A DNA stretch of 63,835 nt, the filler included, from Conidiobolus incongruus B7586 (taxonomy: Eukaryota), in the NCBI GenBank assembly GCA_000697335.1. It is 9 parts of 9 records of this genome, joined end to end, with 100 filler letters (N's around TTAATTAATTAA, not from the genome) between each part and the next. Parts side by side here need not be neighbours in the genome. Positions count along the whole stretch, not along the records: positions 60,976 to 62,211 come from JNEM01006584.1; positions 62,312 to 63,835 come from JNEM01006594.1; 7 more parts are not named here. The stretch is one strand, 5' to 3'. Made by a program: the position numbers and the translations under genes. Under the pieces are notes generated by a model. The model worked only from the letters and a program-made list of their open reading frames with translations. It was not told the origin of the DNA and did no database searches. This document shows, piece after piece, positions 1,045 to 63,835 of this stretch. Numbering within the stretch: position 1 is the stretch's first letter; each line of letters opens with the position of its first letter.

Positions 1045-2427
1045 AATGAATACATGCTCATTAATTTACTCATTTTAGGAAACAACTTCACCTCCATTGA
1101 AATATTTGGCTTCAATGATTGTCAAGTTGTGAAGTAAACTGTACCAATAAAGTTTCTGCTAATGAGTGTATGATACACATCAGGAGTCTTTCATCGAAAT
1201 TCCAAACCATTCATCGTCACTACAGTCCAATTACTGGTGATGATTGGTAGAAGCAATCACATCATACTCATATTTGATAACTTTCCTAATGCAATTTATA
1301 TATAATCATACTTTGATAAATGTATTAAATGGAAGTGGAATAATGAGTTTTTATAAAATTTCCTCTCAGATCATAACGGATTTTTTATATTTCTTAGTTT
1401 GTTCTTACCATGATTGTAATTAGTTAAAGTTGCTCAAAGGTAACTTGGTGCTCTTTCATATAGGATAAGATTTTTTCTGAGGTATTTCATGATTGTAATA
1501 AACTTAATTTTTAATAAGATATATTTTTGAGGGGAAATATGTGAAAATTGATTGATTAAATCTGCTATAACCTTGTGAGATAACTTATTAGTTGGATTAA
1601 TTTTGTGATTTGGTGGTTCTGCAACATATTGATTATTAGAAATGGTATCTAAAGTTGTACCGATTCCTGAGAATGATACAAACACTACGCTCTAAACCAT
1701 ATTTGGCCAGCCTTTAATATATTCATGAATGTAGGGCAGATTTTCAACAACAAGAACTGAAATTCCATATCTACGGGTGTGATTTTGATTTGGAATCTTG
1801 AGCATTAATTATATGCCAATGGAAGGCATTTAGTTTACTGTATAACAGGGCATAGATAGTAAGATTTAGAGGTTTTGAAGCCATCCAATTACCATCTGTA
1901 TCAATAAAAATAACACGACGAGGATAGAGAGGTTTAACTTTGACTCAAGAGGAGTAGGAGGAATATGATTTAGACTTGTCTTTTTATCAAATTGAGAATA
2001 TCGAAAGAAAAATTCTAAACCATGCATAGCACCATAGATGGATTTAGCTTTTATCGCAGCTGATGCAATATTGGCTAGGCTATTGATGACGATAGAATAT
2101 GATTCATTAGTATTCATTGTGAATTCAACATCAGAGTTATTTTCAACCACTTGAAGAGTGTTCAGAGCGGAGAATTGTGACAAGGGAGATGCTTTAAGCA
2201 ATGAAACAATGAACTAAATACTTTCATAGCTTATTGATTTTTTGGTATTTTTTTGCTAGTGCTCTGAGTCGATTTGATTGAGCTAAAGTTCCTACTTGAA
2301 AACAATTACTTGCGATAATTATGATATTGTCAGAGCTAGCTGGTTCGATGGGTTGAGGGAATATATTATGAATTCCAACTAATTCTAATGCAAATAGAAA
2401 ATATTAAACTATAATAGTTTTAAACAT
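1045..2427 (-). pseudogene. Decayed tandem paralog of the GH20 beta-N-acetylhexosaminidase
   Basis: Fragments align in order to the 4757-6454 protein: GIHNIFPQP vs GVHNIFPKP, EFTMNTNESYSI vs DFTIKTDESYSI, IKAKSIYGAMHGLE vs IKAKTIYGAIHGLE, AEPPNHKINPTNKLSHKVIADLINQF vs AQPPSGQIDPTNPKSHKIVHDLIDEF. Many stops and frameshifts; 3' boundary approximate. Confidence 0.9.
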
Positions 2428-4756: not shown

Positions 4757-6454
4757 TTAAGCCTTGGGGACATAGGGAGCTCTGAGCTTTTCAAGGCCCT
4801 TAGTGGAGTCACAGCGGTAAGGGTTCTTGACACACCAGAGGGGTTGAAGAGGTTCGGCGGGAATACCACGGTTGACCATACGGAAACGCCAGTCATTCAA
4901 ACGAGGAAGGACGTGCTTGGTGCTGCGGATCTTGTCACCATCACGGTTACCAGTCCAGAGGACTTCAGAGGCAGCGGAAGCACGGGGCCAGAGGTACTTG
5001 TCAATGACATGTTCGTCAATTTGTTCAGACCAGGCAGTAACTTCACCACCCTTGACGCGTTGAGCTTGAGTGGAGGTCAAGTTGGCAATTAAATCGTAGG
5101 TGTAAACGATTTGCCAGTGCTTGTAGGGATCACACCAAGAGGAACCGGAAGGAGCATCACCAATCCAGGCACCGTGACCACAGTCGAGATACCAGTATTG
5201 GTAAGAGGAAGCAATAACATCGTGTCCACGTTCAATGACCTTCTTAGTGTCACCAGCACCTAACCAGACTTGGACTAAGGCATCAGAGGGAAGGGTAACA
5301 TTGTGATTCAAGAGAATTTCTTCCCAGACCATAATGGACTTCTTGTGTTTCTTGGCTTGAGCTTGCATACCAAGGTTGAAATCGCCCAAAAGCTTGTCGA
5401 AAGTAACATTGTTCTTCTTGACATATTCTCTGATGGTGGCGGAAGAGTTCCAAGACTTTTCGTTAACTTCATCACCACTTAAGTGGATGTATTGATCAGG
5501 GAAAAGTTGAGCAAATTCATCGATCAAATCGTGAACAATCTTATGAGACTTGGGGTTAGTAGGATCGATTTGACCACTGGGAGGTTGGGCAGCAGTGATA
5601 TCCCAGTCATCATCATCTAAAGAAGTACCGAGTTCGGGGAAGGCCTTACCAATGGAATAAGAGTGAGCGGGAGCTTCAACTTCAGGAATGATACGAACAG
5701 CGCGTTGGAGACCGTATTCAACCAACTCCTTAATTTGATCATAAGTATAGAGTTGATCTTCTTCAACGACACCCATGGATTTCCAGAGTTCAGGATGAGA
5801 CTTAGACTTGAAATTGAAATCTTGTGAATCAAGAATGTGCCAGTGGAAAACATTCAACTTGTTGTAGGACATAGCATCAATGGTACGCTTGAGGACATCA
5901 AGAGGCAACCAGTTACGGTTGGTATCGATCAAAATACCACGATGGGGATAGAGAGGCTTGTCATTGACTTTAACAGGGGTGGCAGGAATGTGGCTGACCT
6001 TGGACTTCTTGTCGTATTGGACGAGTTGAGAGAAAGATTCTAAACCATGGATAGCACCATAGATAGTCTTGGCCTTGATGACAGCGGAGGCACGACTGTC
6101 CTTGGGAGCGATTTCAATGGAGTAAGATTCATCAGTCTTGATGGTGAAATCGATGTCATCACCATTTTCAACTTCAACTTTAACACTCTTCAAGATAGTA
6201 GGGTAGTTAGAGGGAGTAGATTTGAAGAGAGGAACAATGGGAGAGTATTTTTCTTTGTTGATCAACTTTTGGTATCTCTTGGCAGCGTCCTTGAGTCTGG
6301 ATGATTTGCAATCAACAGAAATTTCAAAGTCATTAGATAAGACAACAGTAGTGTTACCAGAGCTGACTAATTCAGAAGGCTTGGGGAAAATGTTGTGAAC
6401 TCCAGCTAAGACACTGGCAAGCAAAGTAGTAATAATTAAGGTAGGCTTAACCAT
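4757..6454 (-). CDS. Secreted beta-N-acetylhexosaminidase, glycoside hydrolase family 20 (565 aa, intronless)
   Basis: Hydrophobic N-terminal signal, PHRGILIDT, KLNVFHWHILDSQ, IPEVEAPAH, catalytic IHLSGDEV, WYLDCGHG, GGEVTAWSEQID, WPRA motifs; strong C/T-ending codon bias. Confidence 0.97.
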   Translation of the reverse strand: MVKPTLIITTLLASVLAGVHNIFPKPSELVSSGNTTVVLSNDFEISVDCKSSRLKDAAKRYQKLINKEKYSPIVPLFKSTPSNYPTILKSVKVEVENGDDIDFTIKTDESYSIEIAPKDSRASAVIKAKTIYGAIHGLESFSQLVQYDKKSKVSHIPATPVKVNDKPLYPHRGILIDTNRNWLPLDVLKRTIDAMSYNKLNVFHWHILDSQDFNFKSKSHPELWKSMGVVEEDQLYTYDQIKELVEYGLQRAVRIIPEVEAPAHSYSIGKAFPELGTSLDDDDWDITAAQPPSGQIDPTNPKSHKIVHDLIDEFAQLFPDQYIHLSGDEVNEKSWNSSATIREYVKKNNVTFDKLLGDFNLGMQAQAKKHKKSIMVWEEILLNHNVTLPSDALVQVWLGAGDTKKVIERGHDVIASSYQYWYLDCGHGAWIGDAPSGSSWCDPYKHWQIVYTYDLIANLTSTQAQRVKGGEVTAWSEQIDEHVIDKYLWPRASAASEVLWTGNRDGDKIRSTKHVLPRLNDWRFRMVNRGIPAEPLQPLWCVKNPYRCDSTKGLEKLRAPYVPKA

Positions 6455-6514
6455 GATGTAATTATTTACAAGGTGAAAATGGTTGTTGATGAATTCCTGG
6501 TAAACACTCTGAGC

Positions 6515-6522
6515 TATTTATA
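6515..6522 (-). promoter_or_regulatory. TATA box (TATAAATA) ~60 nt upstream of the GH20 start codon
   Basis: Consensus TATAAATA on the minus strand in a locally GC-richer context (GGCATATAAATAGCTC); position only. Confidence 0.4.
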
Positions 6523-12640: not shown

Positions 12641-14353
12641 AACTTTATATTATTACAATGAATTTTTAGTTTAATATTGAATTATTGGTAATAAACTTTA
12701 TATTTTCACATATTCACTAGATAATTTATGATAATAAATTTATCATATTTTCAATCAGTGTTTGAATTTATCTGGAAAAAGCTGCACAGTCAGACCTCTA
12801 TTATTTCACAATACAACATAATATATAAAAATGAAACAGATATTTGATCTAATAAAATTAAGACTAATATAAAAAAGAATGTTGATATAATGAGAATATG
12901 ATTATTATAGTACCAATTCTTTTTGATATCATTTATTCCAAATTATTATGTGAATTAATGGAGGACTGACTGTATATAGTTAAAGAAATAAATTCCCTAT
13001 CATATTTATTACATGAAAATGTTATTCAACATTTGAAGAATGGACACAAATTTAATATAACACATTGTAAGCTTGATTGTAATATCATTAATAAAAATAA
13101 CCAAACTTTTGATACTATCATTTATTTGAACCTTAAAGTTAGAATGATTAGACCTTTATTGGCAAACACATATTAATTTATTTCAAATTTTTCAAATCTA
13201 TTACATTATAATAGATAATTATCACATAATGAAATATATAAAATGTCGAAAATATAGTAATAATTTATTATTCGATATTAAGCCATTCAAATTACTGAGA
13301 TAAATATTCTTATTTCATTACAAATTGTAACATTTGTACTATTCTCGGATTTTAAATTAAATGTAGTAAATCTTTATATTAAAGTGGCAATTCACCAGAT
13401 AAATGAATGTTTGATTAATTGGAATTGGCCAAAATTTCTTAGTGAATTCGAAATACTGAATAAATAATTTTCACAAATAATTTACTTGATTTCTCTTTTG
13501 TATTACTCAAATTAAATATCAAGAGATTAAAATTTTATTATATTTTAAAAATATTAATAATTTTATTATATTAAATTATATTATTTAAAATTTTTATAAT
13601 TTCAAATAAAAAAACCCTTATTCTCTATCACTATACTAATAACAAAATAAACATTTTAAAAATCTTAAAATTTACTTTCAAGTTTTAATACTAAAATTTG
13701 AAATGTTTTAATTTGATGAGATCATGTTTATTAAATTACTAAATTAGGTTGTTGATTCAGAGCGTGGAATTCAACGGATTGAGACTGTTAAACTTACATC
13801 AAACTGGGTTTTATATTAGCTGTGTTACGAGAGTGGTTTTAATTAAGGGTTAAGCTATATTATTCGCGGTTTGATTATTATCCAGTGTCGATGCTTTACA
13901 GGCTTTGTTAAATCTGTGTTTAGTACTTGAGAGATATGTTAATTTACATCATAATATATTTTAAAGATTTTTGACATTTATCAGTAGACTATATGAATAA
14001 TAAACCGAAAACAAACAGGTAGAAATATGATGCAATGGTTGGAAAAATTAAATTATATTATTCAAGACTTCGTGTTAAATTAAATATTCTAAACCAATGA
14101 ACTCGTATTTTATTGACTAGTAATAATGGAGTGATAATCCCTAATCAATCTAAAATCAAGTTAAATTTTCTCCAAATCTTAATTAAGTTAAATTGTGTCA
14201 AATAAATCCATGATTACATATAAATATGTTCAGGACGCGATGTGCTTTTAATCATGATGAATTACTAATTTTTTTCGCTTATTTATTGTAAATAATCGAG
14301 TGTATATAAGTATAATAATTATAATTATTGTCTTGGATTTGTGAATAATAAAG

Positions 14354-15514
14354 ATGATGGACGTATCGCCTTCAACTTCGCATTTGTCTGCCTCTTCTTT
14401 GGAGGAGTATCGTGCCTACCATTTACAACAAGTCAGAGAAGGAAAAAGAAAATTTCGTATTTTAGCAATTGATGGAGGAGGTGTTCGCGGTGTCATCCCT
14501 AGTGTGGTGCTTCAGTATATTGAAAAACAGACCGGAAAACCGGTATGTGAACTGTTTGATTTAGTATCCGGAACTAGTACTGGAGCCCTCCTAGCACTGA
14601 CTTTAGCTGTACCTGAAAAGCAAGCTGTGGTAAAGACATCAGCTGAAGGTGAAATTTTAATTGATGAGAAGACTACAAAAAAATCTAACAGTTCAAATTC
14701 TAAATCACCTCCCTTCCTGAGGCCAAATTACACTGCTCTCCAATCTTTGGATCTGTATTATAAAGAAACTCCTAAGATTTTCAAGACTAATCTTTATAGG
14801 AAAATTACCACAGGATTTGGTCTAAAAGCGGCACGTTATAATTCCAAAGTCAAACGTCAAGTTATTGAAGAATATGTCGGTGATTTGACTCTCAGAGATA
14901 CTCTTGTTGATGTACTCGTACCAACTTATGACGTGCGCGAAGGCATTCCATATTTCTTTAGCAGCTGGTACGCTCGCATGAATTCACACAAGAACTATTA
15001 TCTCAAAGATGTACTTGATGCAACATCCGCTGCGCCAACCTTTTTCAACCCCGTAAAAGTTGATGGTTATGACGCTTTCCCTAAACTTGGATATAGATTG
15101 TTTACAGATGGTGCTTTGACTGCTAATTGCCCAGCATTGTGCGCTGTGGTTGAGGCTGTTAAGCGTTATCGGCTCACACCTGACCAAATCGTTCTCGTAT
15201 CTCTTGGGTGTGGTGATGGAGATATTACTAAAAACTTCGAAGATGTCAGTCGATGGGGTGCACTTAACTGGTTATCATACTTGAGTGAGTCATTGATCTC
15301 CAGCTCAATGAACACTGTAAAATACCAACTTCAAGAAATTATGCCACCACAGGGATATTGGAGATTCCAAACCCTAGTTAATGCTTCCCACAGCTCTATA
15401 GACGACAGCAGTATTGGAAATTTAAATTATTTAAAGAAAGCTGGTGAAGCTCTTGTAGAGAAGGAGAAATCAAGATTAGATGAAGTCATCAATCTTCTCA
15501 CTTTGGGACTTTAA
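14354..15514 (+). CDS. Patatin-like phospholipase (386 aa, intronless)
   Basis: RILAIDGGGVRG glycine-rich loop, GTSTG nucleophile motif, ATSAAPTFF, catalytic DGA (FTDGALTANCP), VSLGCG. Confidence 0.95.
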   Translation: MMDVSPSTSHLSASSLEEYRAYHLQQVREGKRKFRILAIDGGGVRGVIPSVVLQYIEKQTGKPVCELFDLVSGTSTGALLALTLAVPEKQAVVKTSAEGEILIDEKTTKKSNSSNSKSPPFLRPNYTALQSLDLYYKETPKIFKTNLYRKITTGFGLKAARYNSKVKRQVIEEYVGDLTLRDTLVDVLVPTYDVREGIPYFFSSWYARMNSHKNYYLKDVLDATSAAPTFFNPVKVDGYDAFPKLGYRLFTDGALTANCPALCAVVEAVKRYRLTPDQIVLVSLGCGDGDITKNFEDVSRWGALNWLSYLSESLISSSMNTVKYQLQEIMPPQGYWRFQTLVNASHSSIDDSSIGNLNYLKKAGEALVEKEKSRLDEVINLLTLGL

Positions 15515-16412: not shown

Positions 16413-16637
16413 TATTACCATGGAATCAAAGAAATGGGAAATTTTTTAATTTCTGATTTTTCAAACATATTATTAGTTTCAAATAAGCAAATATATACAA
16501 AACAAATAGGAAAATAAATAGTTTTGAATTATATATATATATAATAATTTTTTTGATTAAAAAATGAATTTTTTAAAATTAGTTGTTTAATTTAATCATG
16601 CTTAAACCAAATAGTAACCATCAAAAGTTTTTTATTG
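16413..16637 (+). mobile_element. Degenerate mariner-like (DD34D family) element, 5' end, truncated by gap
   Basis: Begins TATTACCATGGAATCAAAGAAATGGGAAATTTTT (TIR-like, TA terminus); ATG at 16598 reads MLKPNSNHQKFFI; reverse complement of ~17240-17458. Confidence 0.75.
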
Positions 16638-16737: not shown

Positions 16738-17458
16738 GGTTAATTTAATTTAAAATTTTGATTTTATTTTAATAAAAAATTATATAAAAAGATTTAAGAT
16801 TTATTAATTATAATAATTTATTATAAAGGTTTTAATTTCTAACTATACTTTAATAAATTTTATTTAACAATAATTATTCTAATTTTTTTAAGCTTATTTA
16901 AATTATAAGGTATTATTTTATATTTTTATTAATTAATTTTAATTTAAACTTTAATATATATAAAATGTTAACATAACTAATATTAAAACATCTTAATAAT
17001 TTTTTAACTAAAATAAAAAGATGTTTTTTAATATATTTTTTTATTCTATTAATAATTAAAAGAGTAATAGTTAAAATTAATCTTTTAAATTTTAATAAGT
17101 TTTAAGTAGTTTTTTTTAACCTTAAAGTAATTTACTTAGTAATAAATTATTAATTTAAATAATATTTCATTATTAAAAGTTATTTGTAAATTTTAAATGA
17201 TTTTAAAGGGTTTATAGTTAAGTTTTATTAATTCTAAAATAAAAAACTTATGATGGTTATTATTTAGTTTAAGTATAATTAAATTAAATAATTGATTTTA
17301 AAAAATTATTTTTTAATCAAAAAAATTATATATATATATATAATTCAAAATTATTTATTTTCTTATTTGTTTTTATATATTTTTTTATTTAAAACTAATA
17401 ATATATTTGAAAAATCAGAAATTAAAAAATTTTCCATTTTTTTGATTTTATGGTAATA
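16738..17458 (-). mobile_element. Degenerate mariner-like element, 5' half
   Basis: Directly similar to ~22550-23270 and ~28210-28916; ends in CCATTTTTTTGATTTTATGGTAATA, the reverse complement of the TIR at 16413. Confidence 0.75.
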
Positions 17459-17994: not shown

Positions 17995-19425
17995 TGACTT
18001 TTTTATAACCTATAATATTAAAACTTGTGTCCAAAATGAGTAATCGAAATTGATATTGATATTGATATCAGCATGAGTGATTGAGGGTTTATAGATCAAG
18101 TTGGCTGTATGGCAAAAATGAAATTGGTTTAATAAGGAGTTTTAAAGATTAATTCATTTTATAAATGTGTGTTAATTTTCTCAATAGTAACGAATAGCTC
18201 TTTCCAAAGTATTGGATACTCGGATGATAAAATGATTTATGCCCAATCACATTTATGACTTGAAAATATCATGTTAGTCACTTAAAGGAATAGTAGAGGT
18301 ACATAACTAAAGTTCATTAATACATCATTTCTATCAAAGAACATGAGGAGTAAATTAAATGTAACAACATTAGAAAATATATGTTAGATCACTTGATAAT
18401 GTTGATGAAGATTTTGTTCTAATATTGTGAAGTACGTTTTTAAAAGAATCCAATGGATGTAAACTTATTGAATTGTTATAGTGAAGAACAGTTAAAAGGG
18501 ATTCGAAACTCATTTAACATAAGTTTGGACAGCGCTCAATGATATAAATAATTTATTCATCGATAAGTCAGAGTAAGCATAATTAATTTGATTCATTTGT
18601 GAGGATGAGGCTGTATTGGTTTATCAAAGAATCCTAACTTATTTTGGACAGAGGTCTCCCCAAAGAGCCATTTCAAGGCTTTCAGTTTGCTAAAGCTTGG
18701 GGTTGAAAATATAATGGCCAGCTCAGAAGTCAAGCATGATTTAATTAAACTATGAAGAAATCAATTAATCCAATTTCCAATATGCTCTAAATTATCATTA
18801 ACTTGTTAGGAATTGGTATGAATGATAATGTTAGAAATATACTGGGATCATAACTATTATTTATTTTAAATCAATCTATTCCAACAGATTCATTACATTA
18901 TGTTTTTAATAGATGGTAAAATTATCAGGACTAACGTGCATATTTTTAATTTTGAGATCAAGACAGCATATTAAGGAGAGGGATTAAACGAAGACTTTAA
19001 ATAAAATTTAAAATTTTTGAGTTAGAAGTATATAAATTACTTGAATAACCTGATTCCAATGAATATCTGGGTGATATTTATCAATATTCTATGCTAAGAT
19101 AAATATATATTTTATCACGTTACAGGCTAATAAAGTCCAAATTAAATTATCTGAACTTAATTTTTCAATCCAAGTATATCGATTGATTACTTTTGTTTTT
19201 CTACCAAATGACTACTATAATAATAGTGGAAAAGTGATCCATATATTGTAATGGAATAACTTATATCTAGCTATTATTGATATTCACAATATTAATGAAT
19301 TAACTGAATTAAACGAACGCATATTAATTATTCTAAGATTCAAGTTGCATGGCTTTTTTGGATTGCTGTCAATTATAATAATAATTTGTGGAGATAGTCT
19401 AAGACATAGATATTGATTTATCTAT
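17995..19425 (-). pseudogene. Decayed tandem paralog of the F-box/LRR gene at 20157-21662
   Basis: Colinear similarity, e.g. CATTTGTGAGGATGAGGCTGTATTGGTTTATC (~18594) vs CATTTGTGAGGATGAGATTGTATTGGTTTATC (~20767). Start codon appears as ATA and the F-box Trp codon as TAG; multiple stops and indels; ends approximate. Confidence 0.85.
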
Positions 19426-20156: not shown

Positions 20157-21662
20157 TCAAAGTCTAATTTCTCGATGTATATTTATATTATAACTCATAT
20201 CAAAAAATTGATACGATGAATATATGCGAATATCTTTACGAGTAATAGTAGGTTGATAAACATTATCGTCTATATCGCAAAAGTAAAAAGATTTTAAATT
20301 TGGTGCTTTTTGAATTAAGGTATCATATCCATTTGGTTTAGAATCATAAATTTCAATATATAATTCTTCCCATTTTAAAAGGTAGTCGGAGCTTGAGATG
20401 AGTTCTGTGAAATCGTATTTGAAACTTGAAAATATCATTTTAATAACTTGAGGGAATAATAGAGGTATAGAGATGACGTTCATAGATATACCTTCAGTTA
20501 CATTGGGCACGCGAAATAAATTTAATGTAACGACATTTGGAAATAGGTGCTGAATTGCTTGATAATGCTCATGTAAATTCGGCTTTAACCCTGAAACGAG
20601 TAGCCTTTTAAGTGATTTCAATGGGGATAAACTCATTGGATTAGGATGATTAGGAACAACTAAAGGAGATTCGAAATTCATTTCACACAAGTTTGGACAA
20701 TGCTCAATGATATAAGCCATTGAATATTCATCGATTGAAGTCAGAGTGAGCATAGTTAAGTTAGTCCATTTGTGAGGATGAGATTGTATTGGTTTATCGA
20801 ATAATCCAGACATTGTTTGGCTTGAGGGCTCACCAAAACGCCATTGTAAACTTTTCAATTTATTAAATCTAGGATTTAAAAATACCATAGTTAGTTCAAA
20901 AGCCAAATACGATTTTATAGATAGTTGATCATGAGGATAATCTTCTATCCAGATACTAAGGTCCTGCAAAGTATCATGAACGAGTAATATATTAGGCGTT
21001 GGCATAGATGATATTGTTGGAAATCTATTTAAGTGATAACGATATTCTACTTTCAAACTAAACTTTTTCAACTGCCTCATAGCTTTATATTTTTCTAAAG
21101 CCGGTAAAATATTCTCTGGATTGGTGAATAGTGTCAAATTGGTAATCTGTGATTCTGATATCATGTCTAGTAGTGTCAATAGACATTGACGATCTAATAC
21201 AAGATTAAATTCTCTAAGGTTCGGAAGACTAGCTATTATTTGGAATGCTTGATTCCAATCAAGATTTTGATACACTTTTTCAGGTCTTACCACAGAAAGA
21301 TTAATAGATTTGATTAATCTCCAATTTGATAAAACAAGTGTTAAGCTACTTAGACATGGTTCTGTTACACACCACTCTAAAGTTTGAATCAAAGGGCATT
21401 GATGGATAATATCTATGAACTCCTCATCTTTAAAGTAAAAATTATTCATATAGCGAAATGATGGTCCATAACTTTCAAGAAAGTGACTCAATGCATAACC
21501 ATTCCTTGCTGCTATATCAAGTATTAATGACTGAATTGCACGGCACCAATGTTTGTTAATTAATCGAATATCTAAAATCCATTGCTTTGTAAGGTAACTT
21601 GAAATTTTGAGAACAATATCTTCAGGAAGATTTGTCCAAGATATAGGAATTGATTTAATCAT
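20157..21662 (-). CDS. F-box / leucine-rich-repeat (RNI-like) protein (501 aa)
   Basis: N-terminal F-box WTNLPEDIVLKISSYL...IRLINKHW followed by LxxLxL repeats (LPNLREFNL, CPNLCEMNF, APNLKSF). Confidence 0.85.
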   Translation of the reverse strand: MIKSIPISWTNLPEDIVLKISSYLTKQWILDIRLINKHWCRAIQSLILDIAARNGYALSHFLESYGPSFRYMNNFYFKDEEFIDIIHQCPLIQTLEWCVTEPCLSSLTLVLSNWRLIKSINLSVVRPEKVYQNLDWNQAFQIIASLPNLREFNLVLDRQCLLTLLDMISESQITNLTLFTNPENILPALEKYKAMRQLKKFSLKVEYRYHLNRFPTISSMPTPNILLVHDTLQDLSIWIEDYPHDQLSIKSYLAFELTMVFLNPRFNKLKSLQWRFGEPSSQTMSGLFDKPIQSHPHKWTNLTMLTLTSIDEYSMAYIIEHCPNLCEMNFESPLVVPNHPNPMSLSPLKSLKRLLVSGLKPNLHEHYQAIQHLFPNVVTLNLFRVPNVTEGISMNVISIPLLFPQVIKMIFSSFKYDFTELISSSDYLLKWEELYIEIYDSKPNGYDTLIQKAPNLKSFYFCDIDDNVYQPTITRKDIRIYSSYQFFDMSYNINIHREIRL

Positions 21663-21859
21663 TAAATTAAATACAAAAATTATTGAAATTTATAAAACAT
21701 TAACTTTGTCTATTTAATACAAAAAATAAACTATCTAATTTCAAATCATTAAATTTCAAATTAACATTAAATCCAATTTTAGTATTTTATTGGAAATTAG
21801 AATTTACTAAATACTGAATTAAATTATTATAAATATTATGGTTTTGTATTATTTAAATT

Positions 21860-22365
21860 TATACTATAAGGAAGGAATGGCAAATTTTTTAATTTTTGAT
21901 TTTCCAAACATATTGTTAGTTAAAAGAAATAAATCATATAGAAAATAAACTGGAGAATTTATATTTTCATATTATATATATTTATTAATATATATATATA
22001 TATATATCAAGATTTTTTTATTTAAATTATTATTAATGAATTTAATCATTTTTAAAATAAAATGATTATTAAAAGTGTTTTATTTTAAATTTATTAATAC
22101 TTTACCACAAACCCTCTAAAATTATTTAAAATTTGCAAATATTATAAAAAGTCAATAGTTTATCTAAAACTACAATTTATTACTAGATTTATTATTTTAT
22201 AACTAAAAAAAATATTGTTCAAAATTTATCAAAATTTAAATTACTAAATTTTTCTGTTTATATTTTTATTAATATAAAAATTATATATTAAGAGAATTTT
22301 TATTTTAATCAATAAATAATTAAAGCAATTTATTTTTAATTATATAAATTTATTATATATTAAAA
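21860..22365 (+). mobile_element. Degenerate mariner-like element, 5' part, truncated by gap
   Basis: GGAATGGCAAATTTTTTAATTTTTGATTTTCCAAACATATTGTTAG matches ~16430-16480; interior is the reverse complement of ~17000-17260. Confidence 0.7.
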
Positions 22366-22465: not shown

Positions 22466-23276
22466 AAAAATTATATAATATTAAAAATTATGGTAATAAT
22501 TAATCTTTACTTATAAATTAAGTATTTATTTATCGGAATTTATAAAAAGGATTAATTTAGCTTAATTCACCATTTTGTTTTATTTTTTATATAAAGAGTT
22601 ATATAAAAAATCCAAATATATTTAATTATAGGAATTTGTTATAAATTCTATATTATTGGTTATATTTTAATGAATATTGATTAACAATAACTATTCTAAT
22701 CTTTTATATGCTTTGGTTCAATTAAAAGGTATTTATTATTGTATTTTTATATATTAATACAAATTTAAGCTTTAATATATTTATTATAATTATATATTTA
22801 ATATTAAATGATCTAGATAATTCTTTATTTAAAATGTAAAAATATTATTCAATATATTTTTTAATATATCAATGTTTAAAAAAATAATAATAGAAATTAA
22901 TCATCTAGATATAGATAAATTTTGAATAATATTCTTTTAGATTTGAAATAATGAATCTGGCAATAAATGGTAGTTTTAGATATAATACTATCTTCATAAG
23001 CTGTTTGTAAATTTTATATGATTTTAAAGGGTTTATGGTTAAGTTTTAATGGTATTAAAATAAAAAACTTTTGATGATCATAATTTGATTTAAATATATT
23101 TAAATTTAAATTTTTAACAAAAAATATTATAAAGAAAAAATAATAAAAAGCTATATATAATATAAAAATACTAACTCTCTTATATATTATATATATAACT
23201 AATTTCACCAAACTAGCAATATATTTGAAGAATCATAAATTAAAGAATTTGCCATTTTTTCTTTCCAAACTAATAT
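22466..23276 (-). mobile_element. Degenerate mariner-like element, 5' half
   Basis: Reads ...IFKSNYDHQKFFILIPLKLNHKPFKII (transposase N-terminus, cf. 16598); colinear with ~28120-28916; TIR-like end AATTTGCCATTTTTTCTTTCC. Confidence 0.72.
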
Positions 23277-24634: not shown

Positions 24635-25660
24635 ATGCCTTCAGTTTTAGAACAATTAAAGAAATTAACTACCGTCGTTGCCGATACTGGTGATTTTGAA
24701 AGTAAGTAATCTGTTAATTGAAATTCAGGTTTGATGACTTATGTATATCTTAATTGTTTAGCTATTGCCGAATACCGTCCTACTGACGCCACCACCAATC
24801 CTTCCTTGATCTTGGCCGCTGCTCAAAAGCCCCAATATAAGCACCTCATTGATGATGCCATTAGCTACGCCAAGCAAAAGGGTGGCAGCATCGAAGAACA
24901 AACCGAATGGGCTGTCGACAAATTATTGATCAATTTCGGTACTGAGATCTTAAAGTTGATTCCTGGTCGTGTTTCTACTGAAGTTGACGCCAAATTATCT
25001 TTCGACAAGCAAGCCACCATCAACAAGGCTCTCCGTTTGATTAAGCTCTATGAAGAAGCTGGTATCTCTAAGGAGCGTATTTTAATCAAGATCGCTTCCA
25101 CTTGGGAAGGTATCCAAGCCGCTAAGGAACTCGAATCCAAACACCAAGTCCACTGTAACCTTACCCTTCTCTTCAGTTTCCCTCAAGCTGTTGCCTGTGC
25201 TGAAGCTGGTGTCACCTTGATCTCTCCCTTCGTTGGTCGTATCCTCGACTGGTACAAGGCCAACGAAAAGAAGGACTACGCCAGCCACGAAGATCCCGGT
25301 GTCCTCAGTGTCCAACGTATTTACAATTACTACAAGAAGTACGGTTACAAGACCATTGTTATGGGAGCTAGTTTCCGTAACACTGGTGAAATCGAACAAC
25401 TCGCCGGTTGTGACTACCTCACCATCTCCCCCGCCCTCCTCAAGGAACTCAACGCCGCCACCCACGACCTCAAGCAAGTCCTCAGTGTCGAAGCTGCCCA
25501 AGCCAGCGCCGATCCTAAGGTTAGCTTCGACGAAGCTAGCTTCCGCTGGCACCACAACCAAGACGCCATGGCCTCCGACAAGTTATCCGAAGGTATTCGT
25601 AAATTTGCTATCGACGGTGACAAGCTTGTCGCTCAGCTCAAATCCCAGCTTTCTGCCTAA
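24635..25660 (+). CDS. TAL1: Transaldolase (321 aa; exons 24635-24701, 24762-25660)
   Basis: Spliced N-terminus [35 protein letters not shown], catalytic [33 protein letters not shown] 60-nt GTAAGT..TTTAG intron keeps the frame. Confidence 0.97.
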
Positions 25661-27632: not shown

Positions 27633-28916
27633 ATTAATACAGAAATTAAATAATAGCACAAATTTAAAATTAAAATTAAATATATATATTAATATAAAAT
27701 ATATAATATCTATTATATAATATAAAATTAATAATCTTCTCTATTATTAATAGTTTTTTTATATTTCTGATAAGCTTCCAGTATCTAAAAAATGGTTCTT
27801 TTTATTAAGGACTGAAATTTGATATTTTATGAATTAATTTAATTTGTTTGCAAGAATTTTTTTTCTTGTAAATTATTTTTTTAATTTTCTAAAACAATTA
27901 TAATTATATGGGTTATAATCAGGTAAATATATTGGATGTAATAACTTTATCTAGTTTTTTATATATAAAATCTTTTATAGTTTTAGTTTTATATATTTAA
28001 TAATTATTATGCAAAATAAAAGATATATAAAATTTATATTAAAAACACTGTATAAGAGTTGTTTTATTTAAAAAATTAATATATAATTTATTATTAATTG
28101 ATTTTCCTTGGGGTATTAAATAAAAAAACCATATATCATTATAATCTATTATAAATATAAATATTTGTTTATATCTAAAGTATTTATTTATTAGAATTTT
28201 AAAGGGTATTGATTTAGTTTAAACCAATACCTTGTTTTATTTTTAGGCAAAAGATTATATATAAAATATAAAATTTGTTAATTATAAGTATATGTTGTAA
28301 AAACTTATAATTTTAGTTATACCTTAGTAAATTTAGTTTAGCTATAGTTACTTTAATTTTCTTTTAAGATTTTATTAAATTATGATATATCTATTTTATA
28401 TTTTTATTAGTTAATCTAAATTAAAACTTAAATATATATAACATACTTATATAATTAATATTAAATTACTTTGATAGTTCTTTAGTTGAAATAAAAAGAT
28501 ATTTTTTAATATATTTTTTTACTTTATTAATAAATAAAAAATAAGAACAGAAATTAATTTTTTAGATTTTGGCAAATTTTAAATAATGTCCCTTATAGTT
28601 TTAAAATTATAAATCTAATGATAAATGGTAATTTTAGATAAAACACCATCTTTATAAGTTATTTACAAGTGTTAGATAATTTTAAAAGGTTTATGATTAA
28701 GTTTTTAAGATCCAAAATTAAAAGTTTTTTGATAATTATTATCTAATTTAAATATAGTTAAATTTAAATATAAATTTCAAAATTAAAACATTATTATTAA
28801 ATATATAATTAAAATTAAATATAAATATATTTATATATAGTTTGAAAATATTTATTTTCCTTATATTTTATAAATAAATAGTTTTTTAAAATATATAATA
28901 TATTTGAAAAATCAAA
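27633..28916 (-). mobile_element. Near full-length (~1.3 kb) degenerate mariner-like DD34D transposon
   Basis: Minus-strand translation gives KQIFIFIIDYNDIWFFYLIPQGKSINNKLY, ILHNN (cf. LHDN) and LLHPIYLPDYNPYNY (cf. HPPYSPDxxPxDY); colinear with the other copies; left boundary approximate. Confidence 0.8.
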
Positions 28917-29016: not shown

Positions 29017-29243
29017 TTTCTGCAGGAAAATTTAATTGGTTTGTGAAACATCAAATTTCAGTCCTTAATAAAAAGAACTGTTTTTTAGGTGTTAGAAGTT
29101 TGCTAAAAGTATAGCAAAAAGTTATTAATAATAAAAGAAACTATTAAATTTATATTATATATTTATTTTTATATATCATATATTTAAATGTTTATTTATT
29201 TTTAATCACAAAAAATTCCCATTATTAAAAATGTAGAGTAATA
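29017..29243 (+). mobile_element. Degenerate mariner-like element, 3' end with TIR
   Basis: Reads SAGKFNWFVKHQISVLNKKNCFLGVRSLLKV*QKVINNKRNY* (mariner C-terminus G-x-x-x-L-P-x-x-W-x-K-x-I-x-x-x-G-x-Y). End AAAAATTCCCATTATTAAAAATGTAGAGTAATA is an inverted match to the 5' TIR at 16413. Confidence 0.8.
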
Positions 29244-30546
29244 TTTAAATTACAATATATATTTTTATAATTAAAATTAATCAAATATATAGATTTAATT
29301 ATTTGGATCTTTGTAATTAAAAAATCAATTTTAAATTTTAATTATTACTCAAAATTATCAAGGTAAATAATCTTATATTATTACTAATTAAATTAATATA
29401 ATATATATTCTTGCTTTATAAAATATTAAAAATTAAAAAATAATAAATATGATAATTTTAAACTCTGATTAAAATAGAAATTAATTTATATTTATATTAT
29501 ATTGCCATAGATTAAATTTTCAGTTTTGTTATTAACCATGCAACAAAATTAAAATATAATAATCTTAGAAAATAAAAGCATTCAATTAAATTGTTATTGG
29601 TTATTTTATTAGTAACAAAATTATTAGACTTATATAGTGATTTTGTTTCGATTTTTAATTTTATCATAATTTTTATTTATTTTATTCCATAATCTTTTTA
29701 TTAAATTTAAATGGATAAAATATCAAAATTATATAGATATATTATTTATTGATAATTATTAAATAAAATATATACAAAATCTGAAATTAGAATATATTTA
29801 AATTTTAATGTTTTTTATATATTAAAATTATATAAATTATTTAAATCAGATATAAATTTAAAATAATTATTTTGTTACTATATATTTAAACCAATGTTTT
29901 CAAGTCTAACCTATTATAAACATAAGAATAACTAATTATATAACAAAAATCCTATATAGTAATTTATATAACTATATAGATAATTAATTAACTGTTATAG
30001 TTCTAGTTATATAATTTATTTATAAAATACTCTAAATATAGAGAATATAATGATATTGGAAAGAGTCATTTATATATTTATATTATTAATGGAATTTAAG
30101 CTAAAATTGAAATATATTTAATAAACTTAAATATAAATAGTTATGATTTAATTTTGAGTAATATATTTTTGAAAACAAGATAAAAACAAGTTGTTAATTA
30201 TATATTATAGTATTATCAATTTCAATATCAAAAACTTTATTAGATTGTTGATTTACCATAAAAACTAATATTCCAAAAATTGGCATATAATTGTGGGAAA
30301 GTTTGTATTAAAGTTTTAAATCATTCAAATTCAATAATATTCTTATAAACTGAAAAAATTAGGGAATGAGGATATTAAATTGTGTGATGGTCATAAAAAT
30401 CTTGCTCGGCATTAATATTCTCTTTATGTCAAAAGCAATAAACATTTGTAATACAGTGATTTGATTAAAAACTTAAATATTATACCAAATTTATTCATAA
30501 TTTTATGAAAAAAAATTAATTTATACATAAAATTGTTTTGATGGTA

Positions 30547-31560
30547 TTACGCTTGGTAATTATAATCAATTCTAGGTTGATTAGAAACTTCAGCTGTTTC
30601 AATACCAGGCTTGGATTTAGTCCAATATTTATCGTAAACAGATCCCAGACCCGTCTTTTTAACTAACTCGTGCTGAATTGGCTTATTGATTTTGAGTGTA
30701 ATGATTGGACTGAATAATTTATAACTTTCGAGTAAACACAGAAAGATGCAATCGACCCATGGATCCCTCCTAATATCGAAAATACCTTCTAGAAGGAAGG
30801 AAATTCCAATTGGTAGCATGGAAACGTTGATGATGATGATATAAGCTGAGGATTTGAGTGCCACTCTCCACAAGTGGTTCTCCATCACTTCGTGCCGACG
30901 GATGATATTCGGATCATTGGTATGCCATATAGTTCTTTGAGTTTTCATAATACTCTTCCGAAATATCCTATAAATTCGAAAATAAAAGAAACTGCTCACA
31001 ACTGGTGGTAACACAAATGCTAGAAAAATAGCAATTGCCAACACTTCTTTATGGTCCGTATGCTGCTCAATAGCGATGAAAGAGTATCCCGACGTGGTTA
31101 GGGTATAAGCATCTTCAAGATCGATCCAAGTGGCTAGTAGAATAATGATCAGCCACATTAGACTCAAAAGACCTATGATGTGCTTCATTTCCAATTTCCT
31201 ATCCCAAACTACATGGCAGTATTTGGTGAATGCAATACATGTAGCAGACAGTAACCAACTCATATAAGCGATAAAATTAATCCCACCAGCAATTTGCATG
31301 TCCATTTTACCGAGGGTTACCACTGATCTCGAATCTGTCGCAGTTGAAATAATTATAATACAAGCGTATATAAAATCCATACAAGTTAAATGAGCTACCA
31401 GGATATTATCAACATTTCTTAATTTTTTAGAACTTAAAATTGTTACAATAATAAATAAACTAGGTAATAAAATAATACAACTCACAGCTATACGAAATCC
31501 GTTACGTACTTGGTATTCAATATCATCTAAATCTTTAAAAAACTGTGGAATTTGCCACAT
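30547..31560 (-). CDS. Seven-transmembrane, class A GPCR-like receptor (337 aa, intronless)
   Basis: Seven hydrophobic segments; TM2 NILVAHLTCMDF (LxxxD), TM3 end IAFTKY (DRY position), TM5 FYFRIY, TM7 FSPII (NPxxY position). Confidence 0.8.
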   Translation of the reverse strand: MWQIPQFFKDLDDIEYQVRNGFRIAVSCIILLPSLFIIVTILSSKKLRNVDNILVAHLTCMDFIYACIIIISTATDSRSVVTLGKMDMQIAGGINFIAYMSWLLSATCIAFTKYCHVVWDRKLEMKHIIGLLSLMWLIIILLATWIDLEDAYTLTTSGYSFIAIEQHTDHKEVLAIAIFLAFVLPPVVSSFFYFRIYRIFRKSIMKTQRTIWHTNDPNIIRRHEVMENHLWRVALKSSAYIIIINVSMLPIGISFLLEGIFDIRRDPWVDCIFLCLLESYKLFSPIITLKINKPIQHELVKKTGLGSVYDKYWTKSKPGIETAEVSNQPRIDYNYQA

Positions 31561-32737
31561 TCCAGTTCATCAATATATTTTAATAATTGACTGGAAAAAC
31601 TTTTTTATATTAATATTTTGATTAATTTAATAGCATAAGGTTACTCTATGAATTTATATTAAAAATAAAACCATATAAAACTTCAATGACTTGGTAATGA
31701 ATTCATTGGATTTTTAATTTCTGATGAAAAGATTGGGTAAATTGTAATCAAACAGCTGTTTCAGATTGTAACTTGAAAATCTTTATTGAATAAAGTATGG
31801 GTTGTCAGATAACAGTATCATCCTTTTTACAATTCAATCATTATTATATACAAATGATAATATTATAGATAATATTTTAATCATTTTATATTAATTTTTC
31901 TTATATTAAAAGTAATTTACAGTCCAATCAATTTATACAACCAATTATAATTATTAACTTGAGATATTAATTTTATTAGTGTGATAATATGCAAGAATAT
32001 GATAATATACCAAATATCAATGCATTGGTTATCAAATCTCAGAATTTTCTTTGAAATTTTCATTTTAGTAAATTTTCCATCTATGATGAGTTATTTTCAA
32101 TTAATTTTATTTTTAACAAATATATTTTATTTAATTTCCATTATATCTTAAATTTAAATTAAATATAATTTATAGTTTTTTATTTAAATTTAATGAGTTC
32201 ACGCGCTGTAAATTTAGAATAAATTATTTTATAATTGAGAGTTGGCAAAGTTCATTTTCATCAGATTATATAACAACATGCTTTTGTGATTCATTCTATT
32301 TCAAAAACTGATTTAATAATAATTGCTTGACTCATTTGCTTTTTAATAATCTTAAATAGGTAAAAATAAAAACATATTGGAATTAATATTTGAGTAATTG
32401 ATTCAACTATACTCTCTAATATTTATCTATTAATGGAAATCAGATTATAAATTTTTGATTAAAAATTATATCAAAATATTTTGAATATGAACAATATAAT
32501 ATAACAATATTATATATAATTTTAATCAAATTTTCAATAAAGTATTCATATTTGGCAAAGTTCAATTGCTTAATGGAGATTAAAATACAAAATTATATAC
32601 TTAAATCTATAATAAAAAAATTAATTAAATATAATTGATTTTATTTTATTAATATCTGAAAATATAAAGCTATATTTTGAATGATATTTATTTAGACTAG
32701 ATTTATATTAAATAAATCATATTATTATTAATATATA

Positions 32738-60070: not shown

Positions 60071-60324
60071 TAAGATTAAGTAATATTTTTAAATAGACTT
60101 AGATAACATCTGAATCACTATATATTAATGATGAGTTAATAAACAAGTTGTTATAATTTTGAAAGTTATTATAACAATTTTAATTATTGAGCTGTGACAA
60201 TCAATTATTGATAAATATTAGTTTGAGTAATACTCCTGAACAGTGTAAATTGTTAAATAATATCAATAATATTAAATTAAATATAATTTAAAATATCTAT
60301 AAGTAATTAAGTGATTAATTTATT

Positions 60325-60875
60325 TATTACTTTGTAATTTAAATAATGGGAATTTTTTGTGATTGAAAAAAAATAAACATTTTAATTTATAAAAAGTAAA
60401 AATAATTATATAATATATAATTAATAATTTCTTTTATTTCTAATAACTTTTTACTATACTTTTGGTAAAGATCTAACACCTAAAAGATAGTTTTTTTTAT
60501 TAAAGACTAAAATTTAATGTTTTATAAACCAATTAAATTTTTCTGTAGAAATTTTCTTTCTTACAAGCTGGTTTTTTAATTGCTTAAAGCAATTATAATT
60601 ACATAAGTTATAATCTAAAGAGTATACTAGATAAGGTAGTTTTTTCCAGTTATTTTTAATTAGAAAGTTTTTTACAACTTTAGATTTATATATTTTATAA
60701 TTATTATATAAAATAATATGTTTTTTTAAATTATATTAAGAATACTAATTAAAAATAATTTTATTTAAAAAAAAATATAAAGTTTATTATTAATTGATTT
60801 TTTTTAAAAACTAAATAAAAATAACATATGCTATTATAATTTATTACAATAATTAAAATTTGCTTATTAATAAAA
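60325..60875 (-). mobile_element. Degenerate mariner-like DD34D element, 3' part with TIR
   Basis: Single frame ...HIILYNNYKIYKSKVVKNFLIKNNWKKLPYLVYSLDYNLCNYNCFKQLK...LGVRSLPKV**KVIRNKRNY*. Reverting transitions gives LHDN...HPxYSPDYNPCDY with 34 residues between the inferred Asp positions. TIR TATTACTTTGTAATTTAAATAATGGGAATTTTT at 60325. Confidence 0.82.
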
Positions 60876-60975: not shown

Positions 60976-62074
60976 TGTGCTATGCTTCTTGAATATATTC
61001 TTAAAGTTGATTTAAATTTTTTACTGGGGGGAAAGCTTTAATAGCTTTTTTTAACTAATCCTAAAGGTGTTTAATTAGATTAAAGTTAAAAGATTAAAGA
61101 AACCACTTTATAACTATTATCTTATTATTTTTAAGCTATTTAATAATAAAAGTTATAGTATAGCAAGAAACATTATCTTACTAGAAAATAACATCAGATT
61201 TATTTAACCTATATTATTCAATGGTTTTTTTCAATTTATTATTTAGAATACTTTAGTACATTTTAGTATTAATTCCCCTATTAACTTTATAAAGATACCT
61301 TACATTTAAAGATAATATACATCCTCAAACAATAATTAACCCACTATTATACTTTTGGGTAGAATTAACATAATGGTTATAAAGTAGTTCTGTATCTTTT
61401 TTGAAGCATCTAGCTTTTTTATTAAATCTACTAAAGTATATTTTTGTTTCATTAGATTAAATAACCTTACTTTAATTAGTTTTAGTTTAATATTATTAGT
61501 GATATTTAAACTCCCACCTAGTTTTATAATGGGATTTCTTTAGGTAGGGGTGTTTTTTCTTAAAGTGTAAGTAGTATCTATGTTGATATAAAACACATAT
61601 AATAGTATCAGTATTAACTAATATTCTTATATAGTTTTATAGTTTCTGTTATATTTTTACAGTAGTATTATATTTACCTATATTAACTAACCTACAAATA
61701 TATTTCTTATTATATTCATCTATAATTTTAACACACTTAAGTTTAAGTTTAAATGTTTCTTTATTGTTATTCTTAATAGTTTTAGCTATAGTAGACTAAC
61801 TAACACTAGTAATTCTAACAATATCACAAGTTGATTTACCTTCTTTATAAAGTTAATTAATATATAAGTAGATTTTTTTAGAGAGGGATTTAGGTATAAT
61901 AATACTAATAAAAAAATTTAATATATCTGTAAAATATTATATAAAATAATAGCAAAGAGAGAAAAGAGATATAGTTATATATTGTTAAATATATCCCTTT
62001 ATCTTAAAAACTTGCAAATTTATAACTCACCTTGGTTAAATATTAAAGGTTAATATTTTTGCTAATAGTTTACT
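60976..62074 (-). mobile_element. Tc1-like (DD34E) transposon copy 1, inactivated, 3' end cut by gap
   Basis: Colinear with 62685-63783 at a constant offset of 1709; start codon ATA at 61897; retains VWGCI, F**DN and IKHL* motifs. Confidence 0.9.
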
Positions 62075-62211
62075 AAATATATCTAAATATATTTATTTAT
62101 TATTAAATAATATACCTTAATTATATATTATAGTTTCAAGTAATCTAATATATATAATTGTTTTAGTTATTAATTAAAATATATATATTTTTGATTTTAT
62201 AACTTACTTTT

Positions 62212-62311
62212 NNNNNNNNNNNNNNNNNNNNNNNNNNNNNNNNNNNNNNNNNNNNTTAATTAATTAANNNNNNNNNNNNNNNNNNNNNNNNNNNNNNNNN
62301 NNNNNNNNNNN
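62212..62311. other. Artificial 100-nt contig linker
   Basis: N44-TTAATTAATTAA-N44. Confidence 0.97.
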
Positions 62312-62508
62312 TTATAATCTATTTGATTATAATTATTTATATAATTAAAAAATATCTCTATACTAACCTATAAAAGTAAGTCATAAAATCAAAAACACTT
62401 ATATTTTTACTAATAATTTAATTAATATTTAATAAAACAAACCTAAATTAAATAATAAAATCTATTATATTTATTTATTATATATATCATTAAATGATGA
62501 TATTTAGC

Positions 62509-63783
62509 TATTAATTGGCTAAAATATAAACTCTTAAATTTTACCTAGGGTGAGTTATAGATTTATAGGTTTTTGATGATAAAAAAAAATTAAAACCTAG
62601 TGTATCTACCTTTAGCTTTTCTAACTTTTTTAAGTTTATAGGGTATAGAATCAATTAACTTCTTACACTAAAAAAGGTTAATCTTGTTCTATGCTTCTTA
62701 AACATATTCCTAAAGTTAATTTAAATTTTTAGCTAGGGGGAAAGCTTTAATAACTTTTTTTAATTAATCCCAAAAGTGTTCAATTAAATTAAAGTTAAAC
62801 AATTGAAGAAGCTACTTTATAACTGTTATCTTGTTATTTTTAAGATATTTGATAGTAAAAGCTATAGTATAGCAAGAAGTATTATCTTACTAGAAAATAA
62901 TATCAGATTTATTTAACCTATATTATTCAATGGTTTTTTTTAATTTATTGTTTAGAATACTTTAGTACATCTTAATATTAATTCCCTTATTAACTTTATA
63001 AAGATACCTTATACCTAAAGATAATATATATCCCTAAATAATAATTAACTTATTATTATACTTTTGGGTAGAATTAATATAATAGTTATAAAGTAATTCT
63101 ATATCTTTTTTAAAACATTTAGCTTTTTTATCAGATTTACTAAAGTATATTTTTGTTTTATTAAACCAAATAACTTTATTTTAATTAATTTTAGTTTAAT
63201 ATTAATAGTAATATTTAAACTCCCATCTAGCTTTATAATGAGATTTCTTTAGTTAGGGGTGTTATTTCTTAAAGTATAAGTGGTATCTATGCTAATATAA
63301 AATATATATAATAATATTAGTGTTAACTAATATTATTATATAGTTTTATAATTCCTACTATATTTTTATAATAATATTATACTTACCTGTACTAATTAAC
63401 CAATAAATATACTTCTTATTATATTTATCTATAATTTTAACATATTTAAGTTTAAGTTTAAATGTTTCTTTATTATTATTCTTAACAACCTTAACTATAG
63501 TAGACTAGCTAACACTAGTAATTCTAGCAATATTATAAGTTGATTTATCTTCTTTATAAAGTTGATTAATGCATAAGTAGATTTTTTTAGAGAGGGATTT
63601 AAGCATAATAATATTAATAAAAATATTTAATATATCTATAAAATATTATATAAAATATCAACAAAAAAAGAAAAAAGATATGGTTATATATTGTTAAATA
63701 TATCCCCTTATTTTAAAAACCTATAAATTTATAACTTATCTTAGTTAAATATTAAAAGTTAATATTTTTGCTAATAGTTTACT
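62509..63783 (-). mobile_element. Tc1-like (DD34E) transposon copy 2, full-length, inactivated (transposase relic 63606-62590)
   Basis: ATG at 63606 to TAA at 62590 is 1017 nt in one frame. The two-copy consensus reads VIWSNETK, VWGC, IF**DNA, WLLQSFNFNLIEHLW (cf. IWSDETK, FQQDNA, WPPQSPDLNPIEHLW; D-34-E); C-terminus DSIP..VRKAKGRYTRF. Imperfect ~65-75 bp TIRs at ~62509-62575 and ~63715-63783. Confidence 0.92.
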
Positions 63784-63835
63784 AAATATATCTAAATATA
63801 TTTATTTATTATTAAATAATATACCTTAATTATAT

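Follow-up and report, generated by a model that had tools for sequence, protein, structure and literature searches.

Two copies of a Tc1 transposon in DNA assembled as Conidiobolus incongruus B7586 (GCA_000697335.1) have been inactivated by C-to-T changes on both strands, which struck each copy independently and depended on the base that follows the cytosine. The window analyzed here, a stretch of 63,835 nt, also holds seven relics of a mariner family, three of which carry the same signature, and within this window the signature is confined to repeats. We hypothesize that transposons of Conidiobolus undergo a repeat-targeted loss of cytosine in the order CpG, CpA, CpT, CpC, likely by a methyltransferase of the DNMT1 superfamily (DIM-2-like or RID-like), and we give this account an even chance of being right. 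In its outcome the signature resembles repeat-induced point mutation (RIP); that it belongs to RIP is unproven, and a RIP-like defense is not established in this fungal group. Papers are cited below by PMC number.

The two Tc1 copies, A and B, align without a gap over 1149 columns (offset 1709), and their 129 differences consist of 118 transitions and 11 transversions (6 A/T, 3 A/C and 2 G/T). The initial annotation of this DNA, made from the sequence by eye, had described an alignment of about 1150 nt with no net indel, and its hand count for the first 185 positions (21 transitions, with 11 in CpA, 8 in CpT and 2 in ambiguous context, and 4 transversions) proved exact. Its other statements about the copies also held: each has losses on both strands (27 C and 18 G in A, 37 C and 36 G in B), CpG is absent (0 in each copy versus 11.8 and 11.5 expected), and the reading frame remains intact despite the in-frame stops (Table 1). 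The direction of change was determined at columns that are at least 70% conserved among 66 near-full-length intact homologues. In copy A, 24 changes can be reached only via C>T/G>A, 0 only via the reverse and 5 via neither; the figures for copy B are 30, 0 and 6, and five of the changes of the last kind are common to both copies. Transitions fall on codon positions 1, 2 and 3 in numbers of 37, 39 and 25 (from 87, 82 and 72 C/G sites), single-base codon changes are non-synonymous in 67 cases versus synonymous in 23, and 4 of the 14 stops shared by A and B are different stop codons. Because of this spread over codon positions, the non-synonymous excess and the differing shared stops, the hits, as read from the codons, postdate the separation of the copies and escaped selection. 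Both copies are dead. The dominance of C:G>T:A on both strands, independently in each copy, is a trait of RIP; the clustering of hits by strand is weak (P=0.23 and 0.06 versus a layout-preserving null).

Loss of cytosine depends strongly on the 3' base (changed/kept sites: CpA 56/22, CpT 50/89, CpC 10/43; p=8e-10), whereas the base on the 5' side makes no difference (p=0.77). With ambiguous neighbors excluded, the loss per copy is about 0.55 at CpA, 0.22 at CpT and 0.09 at CpC, and C>T per site exceeds the transversion rate per site by about 170-fold, 50-fold and 20-fold, respectively. CpG was a target as well. At columns 24, 55 and 101, where 53-86% of the homologues have Arg, copy A reads TGT and copy B TAT, which implies that CGT was hit once and then twice, and thus that CpG was formerly present and has been destroyed. 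Judged from these codons, some of the CpA hits are second hits at former CpG. The CpA bias described initially is therefore not the whole pattern: CpA leads among the surviving contexts, but CpG was also a target, giving the order CpG >= CpA > CpT > CpC. An excess limited to CpG is ruled out by the heavy hits at CpA and CpT.

By its sequence the element is a Tc1 transposon. A profile search matches it to Sleeping Beauty SB100X (E=3e-17), the element encodes a helix-turn-helix and DDE transposase related to Tc1/Sleeping Beauty, and its terminal inverted repeats have arms of about 210 nt that are 70-76% alike. The copies thus share with Tc1 elements (DD34E; SB100X) a 338-codon transposase of this type and about 210-nt terminal repeats, and differ in that both are dead and that, of the 150 relatives listed when the A/B profile was run in a full HMMER scan, the nearest intact one shares only 34-36% identity with the relics. 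This relative, P0123, is an intact, colinear transposase of 338 amino acids, the same length as the copy B relic; the 66 homologues used above are the near-full-length ones among the same 150. P0123 belongs to a 14-member cluster and is found on contigs of about 1.2 kb. Its neighbors in the ESM Atlas are Tc1 clusters from Basidiomycota, arthropods and chordates, which are uninformative on provenance. No relative emerged from word-indexed searches of proteins in which copy B or the A/B alignment served as query, and neither scans of metagenome and viral contigs with the A/B alignment nor a scan of plasmids with copy A gave a match.

The comparison of RIP indices between repeats and unique DNA that the initial annotation had proposed was run here. 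Published stringent cut-offs require a product index of >1.15, a substrate index of <=0.75 and a composite index of >0 (PMC7882544). Copy A (GC 0.20, CpG 0) passes them with a product index of 1.32 and a substrate index of 0.58, and so do copy B (GC 0.17, CpG 0; 1.26 and 0.57) and the mariner relic M7 (1.19 and 0.71). The relic M3a misses them on product (1.12), and the other five mariner relics fail. Unique DNA of the window has another composition. In 98 low-GC host tiles (15% GC) the observed/expected ratio (o/e) is 1.13 for CpA, 0.86 for CpT and 0.53 for CpG, and TpA/ApT is 0.89; in the same comparison the Tc1 copies have a CpA o/e of 0.59, a CpT o/e of 1.42 and a TpA/ApT of 1.28. The unique intergenic DNA has 10-20% GC. 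When Tc1 rates were applied everywhere in a simulation, in which the CpG and back rates were assumed, CpA settled at 0.58 for 13-17% GC; the gap between this value and the 1.13 of the host implies that the AT-richness of the host has another cause. Two frameshifted pseudogenes also keep CpA (Table 1); the hexosaminidase-like one has 34-47% amino acid identity to its neighbor, in several frames. Pairs of paralogues differ by 116/82 and 55/53 transitions/transversions, a comparison confounded by coding constraint. The claim that the signature is confined to repeats is thus borne out within the window, where single-copy DNA is spared as it is in RIP. Five further AT-rich "repeats" near contig ends were dropped, since by appearance they are low-complexity chance matches.

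The same signature is found in 3 of the 7 relics of a decayed mariner family on the gene-bearing contigs. M7, the 3' part of a transposase, is joined to the PSD gene with no N in between and keeps 115 codons in frame, with H>Y, D>N, P>L and W>stop changes in motifs. Its coding part has CpA at 0.67, CpT at 1.42, a product index of 1.27, a substrate index of 0.62 and no CpG, compared with CpA at 0.65 and 0.53 and CpT at 1.42 and 1.53 in the Tc1 frames. M4b, which shares 72.6% identity with M7 across 537 nt, is linked to the transaldolase gene by sequence free of N. M3a and M2 are separated by 2 transversions and 16 transitions, of which 15 are losses in M3a and 1 is a loss in M2; M7 and M5 differ in their first 130 columns by 15 transitions (12 are losses in M7) and 3 transversions. 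Together the seven mariner relics hold 1 CpG versus 17.9 expected, and the composite indices of M3a, M4b and M7 lie above those of every equal-length low-GC host window (0/390, 0/270 and 0/423 overlapping windows, respectively). A Pfam search gave nothing in six read-through mariner frames, and a search of the PDB gave no mariner match for the M4b frame; only M7 matched. Mariner relics lie at 7 of the 13 internal ends of gene-bearing contigs, and they probably broke the assembly there.

Variation within the Tc1 family could be followed in sequencing runs. Four runs (X1 to X4) of one sample and one study contain copy B and are perhaps the source of the stretch itself. We aligned contigs of X1 and X2 to 911 nt of copy A at 80% likeness and called a place variable when variation reached at least 3% of depth; some differences were not counted. 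On these 911 nt lie 26,073 (X1) and 22,346 (X2) contig pieces of the family; transitions account for 267/284 and 269/284 of the variable places, respectively, and no indel reaches 3% of depth. In X1, 145 of the 195 C/G sites of copy A vary, and 122 of its 716 A/T sites have C/G elsewhere in the family. These counts put the ancestral GC content at 35% or more, versus about 21% in the same stretch today. The 16 listed pieces have a depth of 3-9, which suggests a family of many hundreds to thousands of copies, the summed depth itself being no copy number. Mean C retention is 0.45 at CpA (n=15), 0.57 at CpT (n=21) and 0.77 at CpC (n=2) among the 40 best-supported of 293 variants, a biased sample. 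Two runs with the same species label from other samples, X5 and X7, have 0 contigs on copy A, which is no proof of absence; X5 to X7 share next to no words with copy B and were weighed neither way on contamination. Contig totals are 81-115 Mb in X1 to X4 and 25-33 Mb in X5 to X7, and the larger totals reflect either strong repeat inflation or a mixed sample.

How would such a pattern arise? In our proposal, a methyltransferase of the DNMT1 superfamily would be drawn to silenced repeats, and its targets would then be converted to T much faster than background. The Tc1 family would have multiplied and then been hit copy by copy after insertion, so that its copies died by stop codons before indels accumulated, and in older mariner families the hits would date further back, the composition having since drifted toward background again. 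A methyltransferase is suggested as the agent because the loss depends on the 3' base and not on the 5' base, the footprint expected of a C5 enzyme of the DNMT1 superfamily. The conversion was more probably enzyme assisted than passive, because the per-site rate of hits at CpA exceeds that of transversions about 170-fold, and targeting would go through chromatin or small RNA rather than through direct pairing of DNA. The initial annotation had offered C>T change linked to non-CpG methylation as an alternative to RIP, and this alternative accounts for the order of contexts no less well than classical RIP does.

True RIP in Conidiobolus, in which homology itself would be recognized at about the time zygospores form and both copies would be mutated in bursts by a RID-like enzyme, is unlikely, even if much of the evidence would suit it. 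The stringent cut-offs are passed by M7 as well as by the two Tc1 copies, the massive transitions are accompanied by transversions at about 1% and by no indels, one copy can be hit far harder than another (15 losses in M3a, 1 in M2), and the spared pseudogenes are only 34-56% like their paralogues; moreover, CpA and CpT signatures occur in the RID-bearing Magnaporthe, Botrytis and Sclerotinia (PMC4352252). Against it stand the weak strand clustering (P=0.23 and 0.06), composite indices of 0.69-0.73 when most windows of RIP-capable ascomycetes exceed 1 (PMC7882544), the complete loss of CpG, which has been assigned to a methylation route rather than to RIP (PMC4352252), and the reporting of RID/Masc1 homologues from Dikarya only in the consulted part of PMC5751038. 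Dense methylation of repeats in all contexts, followed by spontaneous deamination of 5-methylcytosine (5mC) and poor T:G repair with no dedicated mutator, would leave the context order and the absent 5' effect expected of a methyltransferase, and transposon methylation at CG and CHH is known in Phycomyces (PMC11258239). Passive deamination of 5mC has a roughly tenfold effect, however, and the C>T rates seen here (about 170, 50 and 20 times the transversion rate at CpA, CpT and CpC) lie well above this benchmark; for a similar process in Zymoseptoria the authors argue against passive deamination (PMC8016269). We consider passive decay distinctly improbable. An AT-biased mutation process acting genome-wide, or a deaminase of the APOBEC type, might likewise erode GC-rich transposons toward very low intergenic GC, and the 10-20% GC of unique intergenic DNA and the CpG o/e of 0.53 in low-GC tiles are in line with this. 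But unique DNA is rich in CpA (o/e 1.13) where Tc1 rates predict 0.58, the pseudogenes decay by frameshift and keep CpA, and the paralogue pairs, with their confounding coding constraint, have many transversions (116/82 and 55/53), so that we regard this explanation as very unlikely; within the window, genome-wide bias is contradicted by the CpA-rich unique DNA. Editing of the APOBEC type depends on the 5' base, a dependence that the Tc1 hits do not show (p=0.77).

The provenance of the Tc1 contigs is the other question to be weighed. The transaldolase gene, whose closest named homologue is that of Conidiobolus coronatus and whose next named fungal matches are 70-77% identical (Basidiobolus 77%, Entomophthora and Neoconidiobolus 75%), identifies the host as Conidiobolus on sequence grounds, in agreement with the non-Dikarya host first suggested for the gene-bearing contigs. 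A scan of metagenomes with the Conidiobolus-like transaldolase returned 80 loci, the best 73% identical and none Conidiobolus-like. The single-copy genes that the initial annotation called neighboring are not adjacent to the Tc1 copies, which occupy one whole contig each with no host gene on either. Since these contigs are free of genes, their origin must be argued, and a co-sequenced ascomycete is a possible source. The Tc1 contigs might come from a Pezizomycotina mold with ordinary RIP, leaving only the weaker mariner pattern to Conidiobolus. The free-standing contigs in a concatenated assembly, the failure to find the Tc1 family on the seven host contigs and the origin of all four runs with the family in one sample of one study would suit such a contaminant. 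Yet M7, gap-free to the chitin synthase and PSD genes, matches the Tc1 indices, the sample is very rich in the family (911 nt are covered by >22,000 contig pieces), and the one gene of the window that was compared with named homologues indicates Conidiobolus. The named organisms in 5 of the 30 clusters of relatives examined among the 150 listed hits, namely Calcarisporiella in 2, Closterium in 2 and a beetle in 1, include no ascomycete, which argues weakly in the same direction. We therefore think a contaminant improbable. The Tc1 contigs presumably belong to the same organism as the gene-bearing contigs, because the mariner relics joined to host genes carry the same pattern.

Several observations weigh against our proposal of repeat-targeted loss by a methyltransferase in Conidiobolus. 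Named homologues connect only the transaldolase contig with Conidiobolus, both Tc1 copies stand apart from host genes, and the seven gene-bearing contigs (about 60 kb) yielded no convincing fragment of the Tc1 family. Only 3 of the 7 mariner relics have a composite index above those of the host windows (M2, M3b, M4a and M5 fall short), older mariner pairs have many A/T transversions and gaps (e.g., 101 transitions, 91 transversions and 15 gaps), and the M2/M3a pair has no preference for CpA over CpT (8/18 versus 6/10). 5mC has been described as scarce in Zoopagomycota and in other early-diverging fungi (PMC11258239, PMC13297926, PMC7862722). Finally, the Dim2 mitotic mutator of Zymoseptoria tritici is similar in being confined to repeats, in producing >90% C>T and in having CpA as the strongest surviving context (for the Conidiobolus pattern we infer the methyltransferase link), but >98% of the Dim2-dependent mitotic C>T changes in Zymoseptoria occur at CpA and CpG is spared (PMC8016269), whereas here CpA accounts for 56 of the 118 transitions and CpG is gone.

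Other known systems share some features and lack others. RIP of Neurospora crassa and other Pezizomycotina (RID, DIM-2) likewise causes only C:G>T:A changes, acts on both strands, is confined to repeats, kills transposases by stops in an intact frame and yields sequences that pass the stringent cut-offs; in contrast, the host genes here are from Zoopagomycota, CpG is fully lost, CpT is heavily hit and the composite index is <1. In Basidiomycota with Masc2/DNMT1 (Microbotryum, rusts), a lineage without RID, CpG is also erased in repeats (PMC4352252), but the decay is limited to CpG, unlike the non-CpG loss of about 55% at CpA and 22% at CpT per copy found here. More generally, CpA and CpT signatures go with RID and CpG-only signatures with Masc2 (PMC4352252). 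RID/Masc1 homologues occur in Dikarya, bar one bacterial-like chytrid gene, and one Conidiobolus genome is rich in transposable elements while that of C. coronatus is poor in them (PMC5751038). DIM-2, an enzyme active on every CpN, is present in Phycomyces (PMC13297926), which has both DIM-2 and DNMT1 and transposons methylated at CG and CHH (PMC11258239, PMC13297926, PMC7862722).

It is doubtful that the system is undescribed, as was first suggested, since an index-based hint of RIP in Entomophthoraceae was published in 2024 (PMC11105155). There, composite-index RIP covers 24.2% of the Zoophthora radicans genome and 2-6% of those of three relatives, and the RIP-index signal goes together with a RID-like architecture in Zoophthora, Entomophaga and Entomophthora, with caveats by the authors, who state that proteins of RID-like layout cannot be taken as RID homologues; tandem DNA_methylase-domain proteins are reported as well, and no Conidiobolus is among the species values given in the sections consulted (PMC11105155). 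That signal and ours come from the same order, Entomophthorales, and both concern RIP-positive repeats, accompanied in their study by proteins of RID-like domain layout; theirs is a composite index above 0 in windows, ours is alignment based, polarized and resolved by context. A kingdom-wide screen from 2025 found RIP-like signatures to be unique to ascomycetes, and the only Entomophthorales row found in its genome table is C. coronatus, with 6.4% repeats (12/19 supplement files; PMC12543289). Our literature search, which was thin in subscription journals, found no report of RIP or hypermutation in Conidiobolus. It is doubtful that Conidiobolus has a homology-sensing defense of the RIP type with a methyltransferase and a context code (CpG >= CpA > CpT > CpC) of its own. 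If it had, RIP-like defense would be older than Dikarya or would have arisen a second time in Zoopagomycota, and the system could be tested directly in a culturable fungus. A polarized, context-resolved hypermutation in Conidiobolus would also make the hint from Entomophthoraceae testable and carry it over to a further family of Entomophthorales, and it would bear on whether mutagenic defense against transposons requires RID and meiosis or arises generally wherever DNMT1-superfamily enzymes target repeats. Transposon ages and counts in these genomes would then also be misjudged, since copies that have been hypermutated appear old and are missed by protein searches.

Table 1. Positions of the transposon relics, control pseudogenes, genes and linkers along the whole stretch
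Feature	Position	Strand	Remarks
Tc1 copy A, whole contig	60976..62211	-	5' part of the element; 3' end cut by contig end
Copy A transposase relic	60977..61897	-	307 codons in one frame, 20 stops; SB100X match E=1e-19
Copy A terminal inverted repeat arm, about 210 nt	61998..62211		70% inverted match to 62372-62583
Tc1 copy B, own contig	62312..63835	-	runs past window end
Copy B full-length transposase relic	62593..63606	-	338 codons in frame, 22 stops
Copy B 3' terminal inverted repeat arm	62372..62583		inverted matches to 61998-62211 and 63715-63823
M7, mariner transposase 3' part	60316..60875	-	chitin synthase/PSD contig; Mos1 match E=3e-5
M3a, mariner 5' part	16738..17458	-	F-box contig; heavily C>T-mutated, composite index +0.53
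M4b, near-complete mariner relic	27640..28916	-	transaldolase contig; CpG 0, composite index +0.19
M2, mariner 5' end	16413..16636	+	CpG-free, CpA not depleted
M3b, older mariner relic	21868..22364	+	CpG-free, CpA not depleted
M4a, older mariner relic	22466..23264	-	1 CpG, CpA not depleted
M5, mariner 3' end	29017..29252	+	CpG-free
Control pseudogene, hexosaminidase-like	1051..2463	-	frameshifted; CpA o/e 1.22, 15 CpG
Control pseudogene, F-box-like	18058..18922	-	frameshifted; CpA o/e 1.23, 6 CpG
Transaldolase exon	24722..25660	+	92% identical to C. coronatus
GH20 gene	4757..6517		intact
F-box/LRR-like gene	20157..21689		intact, intronless
Patatin-like phospholipase gene	14345..15514		one long exon
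7tm_1 receptor-like gene	30547..31566		intronless; E=4e-12
Linkers	10689-10788, 16638-16737, 22366-22465, 28917-29016		N44-TTAATTAATTAA-N44, not biological
Linkers, continued	32738-32837, 36219-36318, 60876-60975, 62212-62311		N44-TTAATTAATTAA-N44, not biological
Last of these linkers, between the two Tc1 contigs	62212..62311		not biological

The stretch consists of nine contigs joined artificially by eight identical linkers, so that gene order across linkers is meaningless. Its gene-bearing part comprises seven contigs, about 60 kb in all, with chitin synthase, PSD, GH20, patatin, 7tm_1 and F-box genes, typed by family only. The frameshifted GH20 hexosaminidase pseudogene adjoins the intact GH20 gene, and the frameshifted F-box-like copy adjoins the intact F-box/LRR-like gene. 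A patatin-like phospholipase is encoded by one long exon, and another intronless gene resembles receptors of the rhodopsin family (7tm_1), a class that is uncommon in Dikarya.

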